This document shows positions 966 through 56,990 of a stretch of DNA of 64,000 nt, in pieces. The position numbers and the translations under genes are program-made. Under the pieces are notes generated by a model. It was not told the origin of the DNA. It saw nothing but the letters and a program-made list of their open reading frames with translations, and ran no database searches. How positions within the stretch are numbered: position 1 is the first letter of the stretch; every line of letters starts with the position of its first letter. The stretch is from the NCBI GenBank assembly GCA_948989975.1, contig CARHSH010000001.1, positions 82,906 through 146,905 on the forward strand, written 5' to 3'. The DNA is from an uncultured Lachnospiraceae bacterium. Lineage in GTDB: Bacteria; Bacillota; Clostridia; Lachnospirales; Lachnospiraceae.

Positions 966-2681
966 ATGGAAAATAGAATATTAGATTATGCTTGTGAACA
1001 GTTTGAGAGCCGTAATTATTGTGAAGCGTTGGAAGCGTTTGTTTTAGCTTATATGAAAGGTTATGAGCCGGAATGGGTGATTGAAAACATTTATAATTGT
1101 TATGTGGCTTGTAATGAGCTGGAATTTCGCAATGCTTATGGAAAGTGTGGGGCAGAGGTAAGCTATGAGGATTGCGTGTTGGACTTTATGCCTTATAAAG
1201 AAGGGGAATATTATATTTTTGATAAAGAGCGAAAGCAATTTATTGGAAAGTTCTTAGTTTCAGAACTAAAGATGGTTTCATCAGAGGAAGCATTAAATGA
1301 AATCGAGTTTGGCGCGGTGGCGGAAGCGTTCCATTGGAATCTGAAGGAAGAATATCAACTGCTTGCGGCGGCAAAAGACAAGAAAGTGTATGCAGTCTGC
1401 CATGAAATCAATTATATTTCTTCCTTTTATAAAATACCGGAGTTAGAAGAATATAATAAAAATGTGAAATTGTTTCAGGATTTCAGTCAGTTTCAGCAAT
1501 ATTTCCATAAAAATACGGGAGTTTATCTGCCCCGGATTTTGTCAGGGGATTTAGAGAGTGTAAAAGAATTAAATGAAATAGTTGAAGCGGAACATCAATT
1601 TAGATTAACTCCGGAGGGACGCAATACAGATCACGTATTGCTTACGATTGGGATACCTTCACGGAATAGAGGGAATCTTTTGTTAAAACGGCTGGAAAAT
1701 CTGCGGAACATAAAACTGGATGCGGAAATTGAAATTGCAATTTCGAAAAACGGCGTGGATTTCTATCAGGAAGAATATGATCAAGTGAATCAGGCGCAGG
1801 ATTCCAGAATTTGTTATTATGATCATCATAAGGATTTGGTGGCGCCTGAGAATTGGCATTTTGTGGTAGAAATGGCGCATGGGAAGTTTGTATTGCTGGT
1901 TTCGGATGAAGATGACATTATTTTAGATTCTTTAGGGCATTATCTAAAGCTGATAACGGAGTATCCGCAAGCGAGTGTGATAAGGGCAAAGTCCTGCATA
2001 TTTTATTCACGTTTATCGGAAAGATTGTATGCGGAAGGGACGGATGCATTAAAAAAAGGATTTTTGAAGCAAAATTATTTGTCAGGGTTGATTTTTCACA
2101 GGGAAAAGTTTTTAAAGCAAAATTTGCTGCGGTTAGAAAAATTCCGGGAAGAGAATTTATATTATTGCCTGTATCCGCATGAGTGGTGGTGCGCCATTTT
2201 GTCAAAAAAAGGCGTTTATATGGAAGAACCGTTTTTGTTGGTTCAGGAACGTGAGTCTGTGATTCAGGAAGAAAACTCAAAGTATATTGAAAAAGGAGTG
2301 ATAGAAGAAGGGGAGCATATTGCAAAGGGAACAAGCCTGCCGGCGTATTCTACATATGAAAGCCGCTTACAGCAGTTTTTAGGCATGATGGAATTTGTGC
2401 GTTGGATTGCGGATGGGGATAAGGAGCTTGCTTTTTTTTGCGTTGCAAGTTGTATAAGTAAAATTTTATTTCTATTGCTGCTGGCAAGGGATAGGGGGTA
2501 TGAAGTCTCAAACTTTATGAATATAGTTGATAAATTTTGCAAAATGTCTATTGAAGCAATCCGTGAGTTTGATTTTTCTGAGGAACAGCAAGTGCAGTTA
2601 TTATCAATATTAAAAACAAGCGCAATAGAAACATATGGGCAAGAGAGGGAGATTTTTGAAAAAGAACAGAATGCAGGATAG
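966..2681 (+). CDS. Putative glycosyltransferase (GT-A-like domain with an SDEDD DxD-type motif), N-terminal helical region, C-terminal domain shared with ORF 1..668
   Basis: 571-aa ORF. Central segment LLTIGIPSRNRGNLLLKRLENL...FVLLVSDEDDII resembles the GT2 nucleotide-binding/DxD region. RBS AAGGGGATGAG lies upstream. Confidence 0.45.
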   Translation: MENRILDYACEQFESRNYCEALEAFVLAYMKGYEPEWVIENIYNCYVACNELEFRNAYGKCGAEVSYEDCVLDFMPYKEGEYYIFDKERKQFIGKFLVSELKMVSSEEALNEIEFGAVAEAFHWNLKEEYQLLAAAKDKKVYAVCHEINYISSFYKIPELEEYNKNVKLFQDFSQFQQYFHKNTGVYLPRILSGDLESVKELNEIVEAEHQFRLTPEGRNTDHVLLTIGIPSRNRGNLLLKRLENLRNIKLDAEIEIAISKNGVDFYQEEYDQVNQAQDSRICYYDHHKDLVAPENWHFVVEMAHGKFVLLVSDEDDIILDSLGHYLKLITEYPQASVIRAKSCIFYSRLSERLYAEGTDALKKGFLKQNYLSGLIFHREKFLKQNLLRLEKFREENLYYCLYPHEWWCAILSKKGVYMEEPFLLVQERESVIQEENSKYIEKGVIEEGEHIAKGTSLPAYSTYESRLQQFLGMMEFVRWIADGDKELAFFCVASCISKILFLLLLARDRGYEVSNFMNIVDKFCKMSIEAIREFDFSEEQQVQLLSILKTSAIETYGQEREIFEKEQNAG

Positions 2682-2687
2682 GAAGAT

Positions 2688-3569
2688 ATGAAAACGATAT
2701 TAATTTTAGGATCAACCGGATTTATAGGGAGAAATTTAAAGGAATGGTTTGAGAAAAAGAAACAGTACACGGTTTTATGTCCTAATCGCAAAGAACTGGA
2801 TTTGCTCGATGAAAATATGGCAGATTCCTTTTTGGCGGCGCATAAAATAGATGTGGTTTTTAATTGCGCAATATTTTCTCCAAAGTCGGAAATGGAAGAA
2901 TTGGAAGTGATTGAAAAGGATTTGCGTATGTTTCTGAACCTTGAAAAAAATAAAGATAAATTTGGCAAAATGTTTTATTTTGGCTCTGGGGCGGAATATG
3001 ATAAGACAAAGCCTATTGTACAAGTGAAAGAGACGGATATTGGGAAAAGCATTCCGAAAAGCAGATATGGCATGGTAAAATATGTAATTGGACAAATGAT
3101 AGATGGATCGGATAATATCTATAATATACGGATATGGGGACTGTTTGGGAAGTATGAAGACTGGTGGACGACATTTATATCGAATTGCTGTTGTAAAGCA
3201 ATTAAGGATTACCCAATTTCCATTCGAAAAGACACGTATTTTGATTATCTTTGGATAGAGGATTTTTGCAGAATTGCCGAATGGGCAGTTGGACATGAAT
3301 TTGAGAGCCATACATACCATGCAGGGAGCGGACGGCGTATCTTACTGTCAGAAATTGCAAAAATAGTAAGGGACGTCAGCGGCAGGGAATTAGACATTAT
3401 TATTTGCAATGAGGGGCTGGGCAATGAATATACGGCGGACAGCTCACGTCTGATGAAGGAATATGGAAAAGACTATGTTACCCCTATGGAAACGGCAATC
3501 AGGGAATTGTATACATGGTATGAAACGCATCCGGAAATTATCAGTATGCAGAAATTAATATATGGTTAA
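2688..3569 (+). CDS. NAD(P)-dependent sugar epimerase/reductase (SDR family)
   Basis: N-terminal GSTGFIG Rossmann motif. Length (293 aa) and composition are typical of dTDP-4-dehydrorhamnose reductase / GDP-fucose synthase-like enzymes. Confidence 0.55.
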   Translation: MKTILILGSTGFIGRNLKEWFEKKKQYTVLCPNRKELDLLDENMADSFLAAHKIDVVFNCAIFSPKSEMEELEVIEKDLRMFLNLEKNKDKFGKMFYFGSGAEYDKTKPIVQVKETDIGKSIPKSRYGMVKYVIGQMIDGSDNIYNIRIWGLFGKYEDWWTTFISNCCCKAIKDYPISIRKDTYFDYLWIEDFCRIAEWAVGHEFESHTYHAGSGRRILLSEIAKIVRDVSGRELDIIICNEGLGNEYTADSSRLMKEYGKDYVTPMETAIRELYTWYETHPEIISMQKLIYG

Positions 3570-3597
3570 AACTTTTAGAGATTGAGAGGAATTTAAA

Positions 3598-4599
3598 ATG
3601 AACGATATTTTTGAAAACAAGTCAGTGCTGATTACCGGAGGGACAGGTTCTTTGGGAAAGTATTTTACAAGATACATTCTGACGCATTTTAATCCGCATC
3701 GGGTAGTGATATTTTCGCGTGATGAATATAAACAGAGCATGATGAAACAGGAATTTGCGCAGTATGGGGATAAGCTGAGATTTTTTATCGGTGACGTGAG
3801 GGATAAAGACAGGCTTCTAAGGGCGTTCGACAGAGTGCAGATTGTAATTCATGCAGCAGCGATTAAACAGGTGCCGACTTGTGAATATAACCCGATAGAG
3901 GCTATTAGGACGAATATTAATGGGGCGATGAATGTCATTGACGCCGCGATTGACCGGAAGGTGGAGTGTGTTGTGGCGTTGTCAACGGACAAAGCGGTGA
4001 ACCCGGTAAACTTATATGGCGGAACAAAATTAGTTTCGGACAAGCTTTTTGTGGCGGCGAATGCCTATGCAAAAATTTCAGGGACAAAGTTTAGCGTTGT
4101 CCGGTATGGAAATGTGGCGGGCAGCAGGGGAAGCGTGATCCCGTTTTTTGAGAAACTTATGGCGGAAGGAAAGACAACGCTTCCGGTGACGGACGTGCGC
4201 ATGACGCGGTTTTGGATTGATTTGGAGCAAGGGGTTAAATTAATTTTAAAAGCTTTATATACGGCTGTTGGCGGCGAAGTTTTCGTTTCTAAAATACCTT
4301 CTTTTAAAGTGACGGATTTGGTAAAAGCCATGAATCCGGATGGTTCCATTGAGGAAGTCGGTATCCGTGAAGGGGAAAAGCTGCATGAAGTAATGATTAC
4401 AGATGTAGATTCAAGAAGGACGGTTGAATTAGGGGACTGTTATGTGATTATGCCGGAATTTTCATGGTATAAGCCAAATGAAGAAATAAAAGCGGGGAAA
4501 AAGCTTCCAGATGAATTTGTTTATAGTTCAGATAAAAATACGAGCTGGCTTTCTGTGGAACAGCTTCAAGAAAAATTAAAATTATATCGAAAGAAATAG
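3598..4599 (+). CDS. pseB: UDP-GlcNAc 4,6-dehydratase/5-epimerase (first step of pseudaminic acid biosynthesis)
   Basis: Collinear similarity to Campylobacter/Helicobacter PseB (FlaA1): ITGGTGSLGK, FFIGDVRDKDRL, LSTDKAVNPVNLYGGTKL, SVVRYGNVAGSRGSVIPFF, TRFWI. Confidence 0.85.
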   Translation: MNDIFENKSVLITGGTGSLGKYFTRYILTHFNPHRVVIFSRDEYKQSMMKQEFAQYGDKLRFFIGDVRDKDRLLRAFDRVQIVIHAAAIKQVPTCEYNPIEAIRTNINGAMNVIDAAIDRKVECVVALSTDKAVNPVNLYGGTKLVSDKLFVAANAYAKISGTKFSVVRYGNVAGSRGSVIPFFEKLMAEGKTTLPVTDVRMTRFWIDLEQGVKLILKALYTAVGGEVFVSKIPSFKVTDLVKAMNPDGSIEEVGIREGEKLHEVMITDVDSRRTVELGDCYVIMPEFSWYKPNEEIKAGKKLPDEFVYSSDKNTSWLSVEQLQEKLKLYRKK

Positions 4600-4609
4600 A
4601 GGGATTCAT

Positions 4610-6067
4610 TTGGAACGGTTTGAATTAACGGAAAAAACTAAACTATGGATTTACGGGGCAGCTTTTGGAGGAACGCTCTTATATGAAAAACTGCATAAGA
4701 ATCATTATCAGGTGGAAGGGTTTATAGATAAAAGGGCAGAGGAAATAGAGAGTTTATGCGGGCTTTCCGTCTATAGCGTAAAACAAGCCAAAGAACGTAT
4801 GGGACGTGGGCAGCTAACAGTCATTATTTCAGTGAAAAATGTGTTTGAACATAGCGGCATTGCCAGAGAGTTAATAAAAAATGGAATTACAAACATCATT
4901 TATAAGCCATATGCGGCTCTGAAAGGATTTGCAGACGAATCAGCAAAAGAAATGTTTGAGCTTCATAATCAGTTGATTGATTGCGGCTTTTGTAAGGGCG
5001 GCAGGTTTTGCAGGGCGGACGAAATAGAAAAGAATTGGGAAATCCCAAAAGAATATTTGCTGGCCAAAGATTCCAAAATGCAGACAGTTTTTCTGCCTCT
5101 GCCTATGCTGTTTGAAAACCAAAGCGTTACGGGCGGATATAAGGAACGGAATGTTTGTTTTTTATATCCGCATATACAATTCTTCCGGTATCTTCAAGGA
5201 GAAGCTGACGCTTCCTGCCAGCGCTATCTGGAGTATTGTGAGATGGCAGTGGAAGAATTGGATTCTTTTCAAGTTACGGAAGCGTGGAAAGAAAATGTGA
5301 TCCGAAACAGGGCAGATGTGTTTTACCAGATGAACCATGGGTTTTTGTTCCAGAAAGATTTTTTTGTCAGAAATTCGCCAGAGGCGGAATGGAATGAGGA
5401 CGGATACTTTAACTTGAAAAGCGGGAAGCACAGAGCGGCATTTTTTGCCGCCCGCCGTCAGATGTATATTCCCGTAAAGATCACTCATTCGGATGCAGAA
5501 AAATGGATTTCTGAGGATAGGGCAAATGAGGTGAAAAAAGAGCTTTTACAACAGGGCGTATTTGAATTAAAAGCTCCGGTTGAGCATCCATTTTTTTATC
5601 AGATGCCATGTACGGCAGAGAATTTTTTCTATGGCGTATGCTGCGCGTTGGCAGATGAACTCGGCGGGTTGTATTATCAAACGCCAATGGATCATGTATT
5701 GAAAGGCAAAAAGATATATTTGAATGTAGATGATTATGGGTTTGTCAGCCGTTTTTTCAGGAGAAGCGGGGCTATGGTATACGATGCCGATGAAAGGGAC
5801 CGGAAATTGAAAGAAGCGTTAGAAAGATTGTTTTCGCTTCATTTTGGAAGGCTTGTCGCCGCTCAGGAACATTACGACTTGGCGGTGTTTAAAACAGACT
5901 GCCCGCAAAATTTGAAGCAATGTCTGGAAACTATTTTGGCGGATCATTATTTTATCCTTGCCCCAGAGAGCATTTTGTTGGAAACTGAGTGGATAAAAAG
6001 AGTTTATTGTGGGGCTGCATGGGGAAAAAGCATGGTTTTGTGGCATTTGGAGAAATGTAATGTTTGA
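4610..6067 (+). CDS. Uncharacterised protein, paralog 1 of 3: NeuD/PglD-N-like Rossmann N-terminus plus central ParB/sulfiredoxin-like motif SGKHR
   Basis: 485 aa. N-terminus LWIYGAAFGG...YQVEGFIDKRAEE resembles the N-domain of NeuD/PglD acyltransferases. Motif FNLKSGKHRAAFFAARRQMYIPV resembles the ParB/Srx DGhHR-A-P signature. Homologous to 6060..7490 and 8555..9784. Confidence 0.5.
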   Translation: MERFELTEKTKLWIYGAAFGGTLLYEKLHKNHYQVEGFIDKRAEEIESLCGLSVYSVKQAKERMGRGQLTVIISVKNVFEHSGIARELIKNGITNIIYKPYAALKGFADESAKEMFELHNQLIDCGFCKGGRFCRADEIEKNWEIPKEYLLAKDSKMQTVFLPLPMLFENQSVTGGYKERNVCFLYPHIQFFRYLQGEADASCQRYLEYCEMAVEELDSFQVTEAWKENVIRNRADVFYQMNHGFLFQKDFFVRNSPEAEWNEDGYFNLKSGKHRAAFFAARRQMYIPVKITHSDAEKWISEDRANEVKKELLQQGVFELKAPVEHPFFYQMPCTAENFFYGVCCALADELGGLYYQTPMDHVLKGKKIYLNVDDYGFVSRFFRRSGAMVYDADERDRKLKEALERLFSLHFGRLVAAQEHYDLAVFKTDCPQNLKQCLETILADHYFILAPESILLETEWIKRVYCGAAWGKSMVLWHLEKCNV

Positions 6068-33989: not shown

Positions 33990-34280
33990 AAGAATCTTCA
34001 GGGCAGGGTGACTTTGCAAAGCAGGGGATTCCCTACCGGTGGTAAAGCCCACGAGCCGCAAGGCATGATTCGGTGACTCTTATCAAACGGCAAAAGCCGG
34101 ATAAGCGGGATTCCGAAGCCGACAGTATAGTCTGGATGAAAGAAGGTAAATGTCGTATCGTTTTTAGGCGCTTCCTGTATGCCATTTGGCTTTAAAAGAC
34201 GGCATATATAAGACGAGGGACATGGTTTGCATTGTGGGAGAACCGGCTCTGAAATAGATTGTTTCAGCGCCGGTTTTTTG
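33990..34280 (+). promoter_or_regulatory. FMN riboswitch (RFN element) with terminator-type expression platform, upstream of ribD
   Basis: Aptamer core tcttcaGGGCAGGGTGa...CCGGTGGTAAAGCCCACGAGCC...CCGAAGCCGACAGTATAGTCTGGATGAAAGAAGG. Terminator CCGGCTCTGAAAtagattgTTTCAGCGCCGG followed by TTTTTT. Confidence 0.85.
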
Positions 34281-34381
34281 ATGGCAGAGTTTTTGCGCAA
34301 GCCAGAGTTTTTGCGCAAGCCAGAGTTTTTTTGACAGGGCAGTGTTTTTTGGGGATTGAAAAAGGGAAGGGAAGTGACAAG

Positions 34382-35482
34382 ATGGAAGATAGGGACTATA
34401 TGCGGATTGCAATAAAAGAAGCAAAAAAGGGAGAAGGCTTTACGAATCCAAATCCGATGGTTGGGGCCGCGCTTGTGAAAGACGGGCGGGTAATTGGCAA
34501 GGATTTCCACCATAGATACGGTGGATTCCATGCTGAGCGGAATGTAATTTTAAATTGCAGGGAGCCTGTGGAGGGAGCAAAACTTTATGTGACATTAGAG
34601 CCATGCTGTCATTATGGAAAAACGCCGCCCTGTACGGATATTATCATTGAAAGTGGCATTCGGGAGGTGTATATTGGCTCAATGGACCCAAATCCGCTTG
34701 TCGCGGGAAAAGGCGTAAAGCAGTTAAAAAAGCATGGCATAAAAGTTGTGACGGGCGTTTGCGAAGCGGAGTGCCTAGAACTTAACCGCGTGTTTTTTCA
34801 TTATATAAAACATAAAACGCCCTATGTTATCATGAAATATGCGATGACGGCTGATGGGAAAATTGCGACGCGGACGGGAAAGTCAAAGTGGATTACTTCA
34901 GAAGCTGCCAGAGGACGCGTTCAGGAAAGCCGCCATAAATATATGGGGATTATGGCAGGGGTTGGCACTGTGCTTTTGGACAATCCGAGATTAACGTGCA
35001 GATTGGAAGGGAAAAGAAGTCCGGCGCGGATTATTTGCGATACGCATCTGCGGACGCCGCTTACGGCAGAAGTGGTACAGACGGCGCGTGAGATTCCGAC
35101 AATTCTTGCAACGGCAGAAACAGACAGTAAAAAGATGGAGCCTTATCAGGCAAAGGGGGTTCAGATGCTTGCCGTTCCCTTAGAAGGGGAAAGACTGGAT
35201 TTAAAAATCTTAATGCAAAAATTGGGCGAACAGGGGATCGACAGTATATTGTTGGAAGGCGGGGCAATACTGAATTATAGCGCATTAAAAAGCGGGATTG
35301 TCCATGCGGTTGAGATGTACATTGCGCCGAAACTGTTTGGCGGGACACAAGCGAAAACGCCCGTGGAAGGGCTTGGCGTAGAACTGCCGGATCAGGCGTT
35401 TCAACTGTGTGATCCAAAGATTTCCCAGATCGGGGAGGATATTTTAATTGAATGGAAGGTGGGTGTATGTTTACAGGAATAA
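34382..35482 (+). CDS. ribD: Bifunctional diaminohydroxyphosphoribosylaminopyrimidine deaminase / 5-amino-6-(5-phosphoribosylamino)uracil reductase
   Basis: MRIAIKEAKKGEGFTNPNPMVGAALV...HAERN deaminase motifs; C-terminal reductase domain. Confidence 0.85.
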   Translation: MEDRDYMRIAIKEAKKGEGFTNPNPMVGAALVKDGRVIGKDFHHRYGGFHAERNVILNCREPVEGAKLYVTLEPCCHYGKTPPCTDIIIESGIREVYIGSMDPNPLVAGKGVKQLKKHGIKVVTGVCEAECLELNRVFFHYIKHKTPYVIMKYAMTADGKIATRTGKSKWITSEAARGRVQESRHKYMGIMAGVGTVLLDNPRLTCRLEGKRSPARIICDTHLRTPLTAEVVQTAREIPTILATAETDSKKMEPYQAKGVQMLAVPLEGERLDLKILMQKLGEQGIDSILLEGGAILNYSALKSGIVHAVEMYIAPKLFGGTQAKTPVEGLGVELPDQAFQLCDPKISQIGEDILIEWKVGVCLQE

Positions 35483-48806: not shown

Positions 48807-49036
48807 GCCAAACAGAGCGCCGGGTATTCTGTCGGCGAAGTGTTCAGGGATTAAGGAGTTCTAAAGTATCCCATGTTTTATGCCGGTGACGGACGAAACC
48901 GCTCTAAAAGCGCCGTCCATGGCGCATTAGAGCTTCCGCAGACATCGTGTCTGCGGATTTCTGTTTGTTGAAGGGATACTTAAGAACTCCTAAATCCCAT
49001 CACAAGGCGCCAACAGAATACCCGGCGCTCTGTTCG
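48807..49036. repeat. Palindromic module IR1 (two ~66-bp inverted arms around a ~100-bp loop that itself contains a perfect 9-bp hairpin)
   Basis: Arms CGCCAAACAGAGCGCCGGGTATTCTGTCGGCG...GGGATTAAGGAGTTCTAAAGTATCCC and its near-perfect reverse complement at 48973-49036. Loop hairpin CCGCAGACAtcgTGTCTGCGG. Confidence 0.85.
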
Positions 49037-49611: not shown

Positions 49612-49824
49612 GGGGGTGGCGCTTGGCGGGTGGCGTTATGATTGGATTTAGAACTTCTTAACAGTCACATTTCGATTCAGGAATCCGCGAACAGGACGTT
49701 CGCGGAAGCTCCATTCACGCCATGGACGGCGTGTATGGAGCGGTTCCGTCCGTATTCAAGATAGCTGCGGGACTGTTTAGAAGTTCTTAATCCATGAATA
49801 AGTCACCCGCCAAGCGCCACCCCA
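49612..49824. repeat. Palindromic module IR2, an inverted (reverse-complement) copy of the IR1 module
   Basis: Arms GGGGGTGGCGCTTGGCGGGTG...GAACTTCTTAACAGTC and complement at 49763-49824. The loop's reverse complement aligns to the IR1 loop (ACGGACG-AACCGCTC...CGCCGTCCATGGCG...GAGCTTCCGC...GCGGATT). Confidence 0.8.
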
Positions 49825-54165: not shown

Positions 54166-54263
54166 GATATTTTTTCCTTTCTGAAAGGCTTCCCCTTATT
54201 TTAGGAATAGTTTTTGCATCTGTCAAGACGGATGCCGTTTAAAGTTTCATTTGGCAGAGGATT

Positions 54264-55010
54264 TTACTGTTTATGGGATTGATTGTGCTTTTTATCGTGG
54301 TGGTGGCAGCGGGTTTCTTTGGAAGGAGCGTTTTCGCCGTCCGTGGTTTCGTTCTGCTCATGCTCGCAGGTAAGCTCATGGATTGTGGAAATATCCATAT
54401 GTTTACAGTCTTCAGGCGTGACGCCGCTGTCATATTGGCTTAATTGGAGGTATGCGTAATACTTGCCGAAAGAAAGTCCGTAACTGTGCGCGTCCTCTAC
54501 GATTTCTATATCAGCGCGGATATGCTGGCATTCATGGCTTAGGTGGTTCGAACAGGCTTTCATTCTCCGGTTTAAGCCCCGTTGCGTTTTTTCCTCAGCA
54601 ACCGTTAAAACAAGCTCCGCTTCATCAGATAAAAAGGTTTGCATCGTTTCATTTTCAATAATTTCATGGACAGCCGTTGTGTCGCGTTTTCCTTTTAAGG
54701 AAAGAGTTTCTAATATTTTTCTGCCTTCCGCATTGAATGCCGTTGCAGAAACGACGCGGCCAAAGCGGTTTAAGGAAAGTTCTATAGAGGGATTGACGTC
54801 AATGCTGATATATGAGACGGGCGTTTTTGTCCATGAATATCCTGTAATTCCGATGGCCAGAAGCAGCGCAGCGCAGGCGGCGGCAAATGTCTTTTGGAAA
54901 CGTGTCCGCTTTTTTTTCTGATTGTTTTCTGTAATAAATTGCTTCGTTGATTCAATTAAATGTTCGTCTGCTTTTATGTGGTCAAATGCGTCGCGTATGT
55001 CATTCGCCAA
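54264..55010 (-). CDS. Membrane anti-sigma factor with His-rich C-terminal tail
   Basis: Single TM segment (AAACAALLLAIGITGYSW). Tail CHHHDKKHNQSHKQ. TTG start overlaps the sigma gene end. Confidence 0.55.
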   Translation of the reverse strand: MANDIRDAFDHIKADEHLIESTKQFITENNQKKKRTRFQKTFAAACAALLLAIGITGYSWTKTPVSYISIDVNPSIELSLNRFGRVVSATAFNAEGRKILETLSLKGKRDTTAVHEIIENETMQTFLSDEAELVLTVAEEKTQRGLNRRMKACSNHLSHECQHIRADIEIVEDAHSYGLSFGKYYAYLQLSQYDSGVTPEDCKHMDISTIHELTCEHEQNETTDGENAPSKETRCHHHDKKHNQSHKQ

Positions 55011-55527
55011 TTCCTTCCCCTCCCGTCTTTTCTTGATAATATTTTGCCGCTGAAGGGCAGTCTTTTAAACAGTCTTTTAACAGCCGCCGCCCTCTTGATA
55101 ATAAGGAATAAACCGTATTTTCTTTTTTTCCAAGAATGGCTCCGATTTCAGCGGCGGAATATCCTTCATAATAGTGCAGGTAGATCGGATTTTTATATTT
55201 TTCCGGCAAAGAAAGCACAGCTTCTAATACGTCCCTAAAATCTTCCGGAATCTCGGCTTCCAGTTCCGTTATCGTTTCCAAAGGAAGGGTATTTCGGCGG
55301 AAAAAGTTTCTCAAGTCGTCTTTGCAGGCGTTAATGGCAACACGCAGAAGCCATGCTTTTTCATGTTCGCTGTCACGAAAAGGCGCATCATACATCATAT
55401 ATTTCATAAATACTTTTTGGAACACATCTTCCGTGTCTTCACGGTTTTTCAGATAATAAAAGCAGATACGCCGCACCATGTCCGCATAGGTTTCCACTGC
55501 GCGGCATACCTCTTGTTCGCTTCGCAT
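55000..55527 (-). CDS. ECF-type RNA polymerase sigma-70 factor
   Basis: Region 2 (FQKVFMKYM...WLLRVAINACKD) and region 4 HTH (YSAAEIGAILGKKENTVYSLLSRGR). Confidence 0.8.
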   Translation of the reverse strand: MRSEQEVCRAVETYADMVRRICFYYLKNREDTEDVFQKVFMKYMMYDAPFRDSEHEKAWLLRVAINACKDDLRNFFRRNTLPLETITELEAEIPEDFRDVLEAVLSLPEKYKNPIYLHYYEGYSAAEIGAILGKKENTVYSLLSRGRRLLKDCLKDCPSAAKYYQEKTGGEGIGE

Positions 55528-55675
55528 CGTAATCCCCACCTTCCCGCAAACGGTAAAAAAAGAAACCCTCTCTTGCCATAGTATACCTTTTTACTGCAAA
55601 TCACAAAAAAAAAGGCAATGATGGAAAAATTTAATTCCATACACCGCCTTTTACGCTAAAATAGCTGTCTGAAAC

Positions 55676-56038
55676 TTAATGATGTTTAGAAGTATGATGT
55701 TTTTTCCCATTTGCATGGGTGGTGTGATGTTTTGTACAGTATTTTTTGCAGTTTGTTTTCTTTTTGTGGTATTTATCGTGATATTCGCAGTAGGCGCCTT
55801 TCTTTTTGGTCTGTCCATAGTATTTGCAGTTTGCGCCCTGTTTATGGTTTTTTTCGTGGTAAGCGCAGTAAGTCCCCTGCTGGCTGTTGTTGGACGTGTT
55901 GGAATAGCAGCCGGAATTGTTGTGGTGATTTCCGCCCGAATGGCCATGCGCCCAAACAGGCGCTGCAAAACTGCCTGAGAGCAAAACTGACGCGAATAAA
56001 ACGAGAACTGCTTTTTTTAGGTTCCGAAAAGATTTCAT
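55676..56038 (-). CDS. Secreted His/Cys/Tyr/Lys-rich small protein (putative metal-binding)
   Basis: Signal peptide MKSFRNLKKAVLVLFASVLLSGSFAAPVWA. Mature ~90 aa with imperfect repeats GTYCAYHEKNHKQ / GAYCEYHDKYHKK / NCKKYCTKHH and His-rich ends. RBS AGGAGG. Confidence 0.6.
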   Translation of the reverse strand: MKSFRNLKKAVLVLFASVLLSGSFAAPVWAHGHSGGNHHNNSGCYSNTSNNSQQGTYCAYHEKNHKQGANCKYYGQTKKKGAYCEYHDKYHKKKTNCKKYCTKHHTTHANGKKHHTSKHH

Positions 56039-56219
56039 TTGTCTCCTCCTTTTGATTTTGATGCTGTTTTTTCCTCTACATAAGTAATACGATTGAAAAA
56101 GAAAAATCCTTGCAAAAAAATCAATCGCTATTAAAATTTTGGAATCTGCGCTATACTGAATAAAAGAACTCTCCTTTTCAAATACTGATAGGAAAAACAG
56201 ACCAGAGGGAAAGGGGATT

Positions 56220-56990
56220 TTGGAGATGGAAAAAAAATGCACACTTTTCTTTGTGCCGGCAATGATATTAGCCGCGGCGGCCGGATGCGGGACAAAGACG
56301 CCGGATAATGCCGGTGTAGATACAAACCGTCCGCAGAATACGCAGGCGGTTCATGGGACGGAGACGGAAATTGCAGTAGATACGGAACATACAAGCCAGC
56401 TTCAGTTAGGCAATGCAGTCGAGATACCGGAAGGATTTGAAGGGCGGATTGCGGAAGAAGAAGCGCATCGGGAATTAGAGCAGGCGATCGCCAAATATTG
56501 CGGCATAAGGGAAGAAGATTTTGAAAAGACGCGTTATTATTATAATTATGTTGACTTAAATGAAGATGGGCAAAATGAAATACTTGCTTTTGTGTTCGGG
56601 CAGGACGTCCCGCAGATACAGGGAAATGTTTTGTTATGGCTAAATGAGGAACGGGGAAGCCTATCAAAAGATTCTGTGCGCCAGTCGTTTGAACAGGTTG
56701 GAACTCCGGTGTATATCAGCAGCCAGAAGACAGAGGGCTACAGGAATTTAATTTTAACGGAAAATACGCAGACAGTGTCTGTATTAAAAGAACAGGGGAC
56801 AGAGCCGGTTTCCATCGGACAGAGCTATCGGGAGCTTACTTATACCGGAGAGAAGTATCAGGAGTTGGAAGAAGGGGCCACATTAGACGATATCCGTGAT
56901 AAAAAAGGGACGGCGATATTCACAAATCCTATAGAAAGCGGTTTGGCAAATGAAAATTGCCATATTTTGGGAGAAGCTATTCGAAAATAA
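56220..56990 (+). CDS. Putative lipoprotein
   Basis: MEMEKKCTLFFVPAMILAAAAGCGT: signal peptide with lipobox-like AAGC. Confidence 0.5.
   Translation: MEMEKKCTLFFVPAMILAAAAGCGTKTPDNAGVDTNRPQNTQAVHGTETEIAVDTEHTSQLQLGNAVEIPEGFEGRIAEEEAHRELEQAIAKYCGIREEDFEKTRYYYNYVDLNEDGQNEILAFVFGQDVPQIQGNVLLWLNEERGSLSKDSVRQSFEQVGTPVYISSQKTEGYRNLILTENTQTVSVLKEQGTEPVSIGQSYRELTYTGEKYQELEEGATLDDIRDKKGTAIFTNPIESGLANENCHILGEAIRK

Follow-up and report, generated by a model that had tools for sequence, protein, structure and literature searches.

Organization of the locus

A 64,000-nt stretch of DNA from an uncultured Lachnospiraceae bacterium (assembly GCA_948989975.1, contig CARHSH010000001.1, positions 82,906 to 146,905), referred to below as the window, was analysed, and the subject of the present report is a group of three genes on its minus strand: a small gene for a secreted protein, a gene for an extracytoplasmic function (ECF) sigma factor and a gene for a membrane-bound anti-sigma factor. 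These genes had been proposed in a first-pass annotation made from the letters alone, and all three were present at the positions given there. Read from 5' to 3', the segment 54264-56114 is composed of a putative ECF-type promoter, the small secreted-protein gene, a hairpin followed by a U9 tract, the sigma gene and the anti-sigma gene. Judging from sequence features, we consider it very probable that these elements constitute a three-part extracytoplasmic signalling module, in which an ECF sigma factor is combined with a SEAL-domain anti-sigma factor and a secreted target protein, both as regards this architecture and as regards the relation of the promoter to its target. The features are the following.

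56086..56114 (-): putative ECF-type promoter; -35 TGCAAGG at 56114-56108, 16-nt spacer, -10 CGTATT at 56091-56086; 48 nt 5' of the small-gene ATG
55676..56038 (-): small gene (363 nt) for the precursor of the His/Lys/Cys/Tyr-rich secreted protein, 120 amino acids (aa); open reading frame (ORF) with Shine-Dalgarno sequence
56038-55949 (-): predicted signal peptide, residues 1-30 of the small protein
55740..55881 (-): partial internal duplication of the 26-aa Cys/His core within the small gene; 64-nt direct repeat
55604..55652 (-): intrinsic-terminator-like hairpin and U9 tract between the small gene and the sigma gene; RNA folding
55000..55527 (-): ECF (group 4) sigma-70 family sigma factor, 175 aa; Pfam and TIGR02937; record MCI9426166.1, 'sigma-70 family RNA polymerase sigma factor [Eubacterium sp.]'
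54264..55010 (-): single-pass anti-sigma factor, 248 aa, C-terminus CHHHDKKHNQSHKQ; Pfam RsgI_M
54267..54341 (-): extracytoplasmic tail of the anti-sigma factor, residues 224-248, with a terminal Cys-His cluster; presumed sensor

The sigma and anti-sigma genes overlap by 11 nt (sigma stop codon at 55000-55002, anti-sigma start at 55010), and an overlapping arrangement was likewise called in the related loci L001, L002-L005 and L007-L008. The hairpin 3' of the small gene has a 17-bp interrupted stem followed by U9; folding of 55528-55690 gave -42 kcal/mol (z = -3.4), and among 59 related loci, the window included, 35 have a similar hairpin with a T-run after their product gene. Since a terminator-like hairpin stands at this position, the amount of product probably exceeds that of the regulators, with some read-through, and the sigma and anti-sigma genes would owe the limited read-through they receive to the terminator after the small gene. 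The leader and the intergenic region gave no credible match to Rfam.

The small secreted protein

The small gene is preceded by a Shine-Dalgarno sequence, GGAGG, 6 nt ahead of its ATG, and codes for a protein with a predicted Sec-type signal peptide (ending ...LLSGSFAAPVWA, that is, in PVWA, with HGH directly after it). The first-pass annotation had described a secreted protein of about 90 aa; this is the length of the mature form, whereas the precursor has 120 aa. The mature protein is rich in Lys (17.8%), His (16.7%), Tyr (10%) and Cys (6.7%), with a computed pI of 9.6 and a computed charge of +14 at pH 7. The YC-x-YH-type repeats that had been pointed out are real and amount to about 1.5 copies of a 26-aa unit (TYCAYHEKNHKQGANCKYYGQTKKKG / AYCEYHDKYHKKKTNCKKYCTKHHTT), a pattern that results from a 64-nt direct repeat inside the gene (55740-55803 and 55818-55881, 72% identical and 78 nt, or 26 codons, apart). 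The Cys3His5 core is thereby present in about 1.5 copies, and the protein ends in the cluster HHTSKHH.

At 90% identity the family of this protein falls into 80 clusters; at 50% identity, 34 were counted among 1.84 billion representatives. All members are short and carry neither a functional name nor a Pfam domain. Their alignment shows as invariant the junction between A30 and H31, together with C84, Y86, H87, H91, C97, Y100, C101, H104, H108, G111 and H114, so that the family core reads C-x-Y-H-x3-H-x5-C-x2-Y-C-x2-H-x3-H-x2-G-x2-H, with three Cys and five His within 31 residues. The number of cores varies, some members having one core and others two full cores (e.g., P0231 and P0234). In agreement with the earlier statement that the repeat protein has no obvious family, the small protein matched nothing in Pfam or NCBIfam, and a Foldseek comparison of its AlphaFold2 (AF2) model with the PDB gave no fold match.

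The segment A30-H31-G32-H33 is invariant or nearly so in the family, and cleavage after A30 is predicted from the P-x-x-A pattern. If signal peptidase does cut there, the mature N-terminus H-G-H is predicted to form an amino-terminal Cu(II)- and Ni(II)-binding (ATCUN) type X-X-His site. The binding of Cu(II) and Ni(II) by X-X-His at a free N-terminus is established chemistry.

A second reading frame competes with the small gene on the opposite strand, where an antisense ORF (55679-55978 (+), 99 aa) encodes a hydrophobic polypeptide. This frame is the one that public gene callers annotate, e.g., in L001, where it stands in the public assembly at 5033-5284 (-) as a protein of 83 aa. Three lines of evidence establish the His-rich frame as the real gene: its homologues keep the signal peptide and the invariant Cys/His pattern; substitutions in seven orthologue pairs pile up at codon position 3, as expected of a frame under coding selection; and in the same pairs synonymous codon changes number 15-35 for the sense frame and 0-8 for the in-register antisense frame. 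The antisense ORF, whose hydrophobic appearance simply reflects its pairing with Lys and His codons on the other strand, was ruled out by these codon-position and synonymous counts and by the direction in which the Shine-Dalgarno sequence, the signal peptide and the promoter point. As gene callers prefer the antisense ORF, public protein data for the species do not contain the small protein in its exact form: the sole versions of it among 15 billion proteins are a frameshifted variant and an extended call. The small gene and the corresponding product genes of other loci are in fact unannotated and commonly overlooked.

A strongly cationic mature peptide (the pI and charge given above) with an N-terminal X-X-His motif might also be a secreted antimicrobial or competition peptide of the histatin type, regulated by the sigma pair. 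Histatin-5 has such an N-terminal motif, and the narrow distribution and fast evolution of the family would suit a peptide of this kind. We regard this explanation as very unlikely: no conserved immunity, export or modification genes lie nearby, export would rely on an ordinary Sec signal peptide, and most products of the same promoter in related species are anionic and rich in Gly, Asp and Cys. A bacteriocin or ribosomally synthesized and post-translationally modified peptide was likewise considered and rejected, the modification, immunity and export genes being absent.

The ECF sigma factor and its SEAL-domain anti-sigma factor

The assignment of an ECF sigma/anti-sigma pair, made in the first-pass annotation, was borne out by Pfam and NCBIfam. 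The sigma factor matches Sigma70_r2 (residues 11-73, E=7.5e-11) and Sigma70_r4_2 (residues 98-150, E=4.5e-15) and has no domains other than sigma2 and sigma4; its score against TIGR02937, the ECF superfamily model, is 77.4 bits (cut-off 42.9), and its closest solved relatives in the PDB are SigW, SigE and SigH. As in other group 4 ECF factors, whose length stays below about 200 aa, only sigma2 and sigma4 are found within the 175 aa, the anti-sigma gene lies directly 3', and a conserved CGT-type promoter is present. The main text of the ECF classification of Casas-Pastor 2021 mentions no group with these features.

The anti-sigma factor is composed of a cytoplasmic N-terminus (residues 1-41), a transmembrane helix (about 42-62), an RsgI-type SEAL domain (65-223) and a disordered tail (224-248). 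Its ectodomain (65-188) matches Pfam RsgI_M (PF23750) with E=7e-28, and a profile built from 32 diverse homologues matches the SEAL domains of RsgI9, RsgI1, RsgI2 and RsgI6 of C. thermocellum and that of B. subtilis RsgI in the PDB (8u9o, 8hep, 8heq, 8hdj and 8t9n; E=4e-17 to 5e-14). The AF2 model has a mean predicted local distance difference test (pLDDT) score of 86.5, with values above 90 over residues 65-220 and about 51 in the tail, and shows a helix through the membrane. In a Foldseek search with this model the RsgI structures were the only significant matches, with TM-scores of 0.79-0.80 and root-mean-square deviations of 2.2-2.5 A for 8t9n and 8hdj.

The motif S-I-D-x-N-P-S-x-E-L, which includes N73 and P74, is invariant across the 32 homologues. 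The Asn-Pro pair sits in the beta1-beta2 hairpin of the model, between strands 66-71 and 75-80, and the post-cleavage crystal chains of RsgI start exactly at the Pro that is aligned with P74. The ectodomain is thus an RsgI-type SEAL autoproteolytic domain by sequence and modelled fold, with its putative site at Asn73-Pro74; cleavage itself is predicted. At the end of the domain, C202 and H217 are conserved in a subfamily-specific manner, and the FAA motif that is discussed in the RsgI papers is found within the transmembrane segment.

The cytoplasmic part, some 40 residues, shows no match to RsgI_N (PF12791) at E<=0.1. Since the partner is moreover a sigma factor with a canonical sigma4 domain, the protein is to be classed as a SEAL-domain anti-sigma factor and the two genes do not form a SigI/RsgI pair. 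The HxxxCxxC motif of zinc-binding (ZAS) anti-sigma factors is also not present: the first 41 residues (MANDIRDAFDHIKADEHLIESTKQFITENNQKKKRTRFQKT) contain no Cys, and there is no zf-HC2 match.

The homologues of the anti-sigma factor fall into 233 clusters, and relatives were located at 459 places in one-genome-per-species collections, mostly in Lachnospiraceae and other Clostridia and in gut samples. The His-rich tail to which the first-pass annotation drew attention proved to be a conserved feature of the family: a His cluster stands at the C-terminus, after a variable acidic or polar linker, in nearly all of the 120 listed homologues, and in many tails a Cys residue is found beside it.

A conserved putative promoter ahead of genes for secreted Cys/His-rich proteins

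The promoter motif was first seen as an element common to the upstream regions of the small-protein genes. The consensus of 64 distinct sites is T-GCAAGG-a-TTT-N11-T-CGT-a-TT-at, and the search pattern GCAAGR-N16-CGTRT was used to locate it. An exact match occurs once in the 64-kb window, at the site 48 nt 5' of the small gene, and 67 of 89 related loci likewise contain one motif each. The first gene after the motif codes for a signal-peptide-bearing, Cys/His-rich protein in 56 of the 80 species loci. The motif stays with this product gene when the latter is convergent to the sigma operon (L002, L033, L038, L044, L057 and L071) and when it lies 3' of that operon (L028, L031 and L066). In loci that have no product gene, the motif is found about 20 nt before the sigma start codon (L130, L143, L157, L165 and L184), and in L040, L050 and L054 it stands 121-188 nt before the sigma start, with no product gene nearby; a position in front of the sigma gene where no product intervenes is as expected of an autoregulated ECF promoter.

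We infer from this co-occurrence that the motif is an ECF-type promoter, with a CGT-containing -10 element, and that it would be recognized by the present sigma factor. As it directly precedes the secreted Cys/His genes even where these have been moved or inverted, the secreted protein is, as far as comparison of the loci can tell, the regulated product and dedicated local target of the sigma factor. One of the two roles offered for the small protein in the first-pass annotation, that of a regulated product, agrees with the conserved promoter directly ahead of its gene; the other, a periplasmic metal buffer, was worded unsuitably, the host being a Gram-positive-type Clostridial bacterium. It had also been reasoned there that the small protein should be conserved together with the sigma pair, and it does stand beside the pair in the first three homologue lineages, despite different neighbouring genes and even in inverted orientation, and in 16 of the 80 species loci.

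A wider regulon was sought by scanning metagenome contigs for the promoter, and this line was abandoned: most matches were chance occurrences from unrelated environments, and the credible ones were again located before secreted Cys/His genes or the sigma gene, with no new class of target. In L072, an ORF of 591 aa with no assigned function lies between the product and sigma genes, and a second, divergent ECF-like sigma gene adjoins the promoter; the coordinates 2736-4511 (+) and 1381-1944 (-) are listed for the two jointly.

Variable products with a shared His cluster

In loci other than those with the window-type small protein, the promoter drives unrelated, hypervariable secreted proteins. 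Among them are Gly/Tyr-rich proteins with DADGDGVCDN repeats, proteins with CGHTDGNHPSDCPNW repeats and proteins with GACGVSGC...EHTH repeats. The median contents of Cys and His in 55 products are 6.4% and 9.0%, respectively, and their net charge ranges from -24 to +17, with 22 cationic and 29 anionic proteins. Besides one PG_binding_1 domain, the Pfam search of these other product families gave only sub-threshold matches to EF-hand, dockerin and FeS domains. The properties conserved among the products are the promoter, the signal peptide, the richness in Cys and His, and the terminal His cluster.

This cluster, defined as HH-x1-4-H in the last 15 residues, was counted in the 80 species loci among the anti-sigma factors and among the other ORFs of at least 150 aa. 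It is present in 44 of 71 anti-sigma factors and in 24 of the other ORFs, and all 24 are secreted products; none of the remaining 638 long ORFs contains it. With a broader measure, at least three His in the last 20 residues, both the anti-sigma tail and the product carry the cluster in 52 of 57 loci. In two distant relatives the cluster is lacking: neither the anti-sigma tail nor the secreted Cys-rich product of L069, a Christensenellaceae chromosome, has His at its end, and L087 combines a His-less anti-sigma tail with a signal-peptide-bearing, Cys-containing ORF 5' of the sigma gene that is His-less in the displayed parts of its sequence. These two loci would be instances of co-variation between sensor tail and product.

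The restriction of the terminal motif to sensor and product raises the question of whether the secreted protein is itself the signal, acting on the anti-sigma tail either in the manner of an autoinducer or by tethering it through contact of the two His clusters, possibly bridged by metal, with positive feedback, density sensing or a pulling force as the outcome. That the product is the sole local target of the promoter, and that the SEAL mechanism favours macromolecular ligands, would accord with such a role. Against these points, the ectodomain offers nothing but a low-complexity tail by way of a specific recognition domain, and the products display several unrelated repeat architectures as opposed to the conserved domain of the anti-sigma factor, so that specific pairing is unlikely; furthermore, L040, L050 and L054 possess the promoter and the sigma pair with no product nearby. 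On balance, we find it distinctly unlikely that the product is the signal.

The Cys content of the products, together with the Cys residues beside the His cluster in many anti-sigma tails, could alternatively indicate a circuit that answers oxidants or thiol-reactive compounds, in which an anaerobe would use its Cys-rich products as a sacrificial thiol buffer outside the cell. However, known thiol-sensing anti-sigma factors employ the cytoplasmic HxxxCxxC zinc site, which is not present here, and the universally shared feature is the His cluster and not Cys; such a function appears extremely unlikely.

Comparison with known signalling systems

The module works most like the SigI-RsgI system of B. 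subtilis and Clostridium (Hungateiclostridium) thermocellum, without being a member of that pair. Like RsgI, the anti-sigma factor is a single-pass protein with a juxtamembrane SEAL (RsgI_M) domain whose beta1-beta2 hairpin holds the conserved Asn-Pro site, and it continues C-terminally into a disordered or sensor region. Unlike RsgI, it is partnered with a canonical ECF factor (sigma2 and sigma4) instead of SigI, and its cytoplasmic N-terminus of about 40 aa has no RsgI_N match. The sensor is a tail of 25-100 aa that ends in the His cluster, as opposed to the carbohydrate-binding module or long disordered region of RsgI, and the target is one small secreted Cys/His-rich protein, whereas SigI targets cellulosome and cell-wall genes. 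In RsgI, self-cleavage of the SEAL domain takes place at the conserved Asn-Pro bond and the fragments stay together; their separation lets RseP/RasP and Clp destroy the anti-sigma factor, which frees the sigma factor (PMC10328401; bioRxiv 10.1101/2023.06.27.546760). The presence of an RsgI/SEAL ectodomain therefore dictates the likely signalling mechanism of the module.

Two metal-responsive systems are also similar in part. The CnrYXH (NccYXH) system for Ni and Co in Cupriavidus metallidurans likewise consists of an ECF sigma factor, a short single-pass anti-sigma factor with a cytoplasmic segment of about 40-45 aa and a small extracytoplasmic protein that uses His (PMC6851896). In contrast to the small protein, which is the output of the present module, CnrX is a membrane-anchored sensor with no sequence relation to it; CnrY lacks a SEAL domain, an efflux pump makes up the regulon, signalling is conformational and not proteolytic, and the host is Gram-negative. 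The hallmarks of CnrX are in fact lacking here: the small protein matches neither Pfam nor NCBIfam, its modelled core is formed of small beta-hairpins while CnrX is a four-helix protein, and no efflux genes lie nearby. In CorE and CorE2 (ECF44) of Myxococcus xanthus, the activity of an ECF sigma factor is similarly tied to Cys/His-type metal ligands (PMC6851896), but the CxC motif and Cys-rich domain belong to the cytoplasmic sigma factor and there is no anti-sigma factor; in the present case the sigma factor has no extension and the Cys/His motifs are extracytoplasmic. A review from 2019 on ECF sigma factors that respond to metals treats FecI, FpvI, PvdS, CnrH, CarQ, CorE and CorE2 and uses neither 'Firmicutes' nor 'Gram-positive' anywhere in its text (PMC6851896).

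As for the His clusters themselves (HH-x-HH) and the N-terminal X-X-His, a similar chemistry, capable of binding Ni(II), Cu(II) and Zn(II), is found in Hpn, the GroEL1 tail, histidine-rich glycoprotein and histatin-5. The likeness is one of composition and not of homology, and none of these proteins is a dedicated ECF target or shares a motif with a cognate sensor. A search of the literature, confined to an open-access library, found no description of a SEAL-domain anti-sigma factor combined with an ECF sigma factor and a His tail.

Proposed mechanism

The following sequence of events is suggested. (i) By analogy with RsgI, the anti-sigma factor would cut itself between N73 and P74, and the two halves would remain associated. 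(ii) A signal read through the His-cluster tail, to whose perception C202 and H217 may add, would free the outer half. (iii) A site-2 protease (RasP/RseP) and Clp would then destroy the remainder, again as in RsgI, and release the sigma factor. (iv) The freed sigma factor would transcribe the secreted-protein gene from the TGCAAGGaTTT-N11-TCGTaTTat promoter. (v) The product, with its H-G-H N-terminus, Cys3His5 core and HH-x3-HH end, would bind the same ligand as the tail, buffer it outside the cell and thus exert negative feedback on its own induction. Since the product bears the same cluster as the sensor, it would compete for the same ligand and so close the loop. The likeliest ligand, to go by the motifs, would be a divalent transition metal (Ni, Zn, Cu or Co). 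A metal is the most economical choice in view of the Cys/His chemistry, the ATCUN-type N-terminus and the absence of any conserved charge, and His-rich tails such as those of Hpn, GroEL1 and histidine-rich glycoprotein (HRG) are established metal ligands. The full model, in which proteolysis is triggered through the His tail and the product competes for the same ligand, probably a transition metal, as feedback, is preferred to the alternatives considered here and is put forward tentatively, its probability being judged a little below even. The metal-sensing role suggested in the first-pass annotation is plausible and derives from the Cys/His chemistry.

Several observations weigh against it. 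No metal transporter, efflux pump or metalloregulator was found as a conserved neighbour of the module, the neighbours differing between lineages. A pulling force is thought to be necessary for SEAL signalling, and such a force is hard to derive from a metal ion. His clusters can also work as pH sensors. In the small protein, AF2 models only 33 residues with confidence (core 80-112, pLDDT about 80-84), and small beta-hairpins are predicted there. The -35 element GCAAGG departs from the usual 'AAC' core of ECF promoters, and the promoter is assigned to the sigma factor through co-occurrence only. Finally, the product of L017 (3951-4397 (+)) consists of AHGH and Cys/His repeats and ends, in place of the His cluster, in a PG_binding_1 domain (E=7e-17), which hints at a role at the cell wall.

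The same circuit could accordingly operate with a His cluster that senses pH or envelope charge, the ectodomain being freed by protonation of the tail (pKa about 6) or by its binding to anionic wall polymers, and the products being associated with the wall. The composition of the tail, an acidic or polar linker and then the His cluster, would fit this explanation, as would the PG_binding_1 domain of the L017 product; the window product gains about 10 charges from pH 7 to pH 5.5, and B. subtilis RsgI senses the state of the cell wall via a disordered region (PMC9732909). It leaves unexplained, on the other hand, the conserved Cys, the CxYH...CxxYC...H core and the N-terminal X-X-His, and the net charge of the products is not conserved (22 cationic, 29 anionic). 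We consider pH or wall sensing unlikely, although it carries some weight.

A further variant retains the metal and supplies the force. The shared His cluster could be a metal-gated mechanical handle, in which metal would cross-link the tail to the secreted Cys/His proteins or their wall matrix, and growth or movement of the wall would pull the ectodomain off. This arrangement is improbable; if true, it would turn a small-ion signal into mechanical force for SEAL-dependent regulated intramembrane proteolysis (RIP) and would represent a previously unknown mode of metal sensing.

Neighbouring features of the window

The genes on either side of the three-gene segment do not appear to belong to the module. 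Between the anti-sigma stop codon and trkH, at 54198-54226 (-), there is a near-consensus sigma-70 promoter, TTGACA-17-TAAAAT (11 of 12 matches). Since trkH has its own sigma-70 promoter, the TrkH/TrkA potassium-uptake genes look like a separate unit; TrkH/TrkA and PPK2 were considered as module members and rejected, as they are not conserved as neighbours and trkH is served by that promoter. On the other side, about 100 nt from the ECF-type promoter, a divergent gene (56220-56990 (+)) encodes a putative lipoprotein of 256 aa with the lipobox LAAAAGC and no Pfam family. Proteins of about 260 aa adjoin the module in the window, in L002 and in L007, and were examined as a conserved additional component; they are mutually unrelated, and the idea was dropped.

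Structured RNAs were identified elsewhere in the window. Two full-length TwoAYGGAY motifs (RF01731; 135 and 120 bits) lie at 48840-49005 (-) and 49636-49801 (+), about 630 nt apart on opposite strands, between a penicillin-binding-protein gene and a ROK-family gene. A flavin mononucleotide (FMN) riboswitch (RF00050, 82 bits) is present at 33990-34151 (+), 5' of the ORF 34259-35482.

Implications

The three-gene module is conserved in many relatives and is apparently undescribed. The SEAL ectodomain, the terminal His cluster common to product and sensor, and the hypervariable Cys/His products of most relatives are points that extend beyond the first-pass annotation. The SEAL domain is now linked to a canonical ECF sigma factor and to a new kind of presumed sensor, the terminal His cluster. 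The module has a single dedicated output gene, which is easily made into a reporter. Among its carriers in culture are Lactonifactor longoviformis DSM 17459 (L049), Dorea sp. 5-2 (L063) and Anaerolentibacter hominis CSJ-1 (L084), and Lachnospiraceae bacterium 66-29, 62-26 and 47-T17 are further candidate strains. Should the ligand prove to be a metal, the module would be the first metal-responsive ECF system in Gram-positive-type bacteria, and its products would form a family of secreted metal-binding proteins relevant to the competition for metals in the gut.

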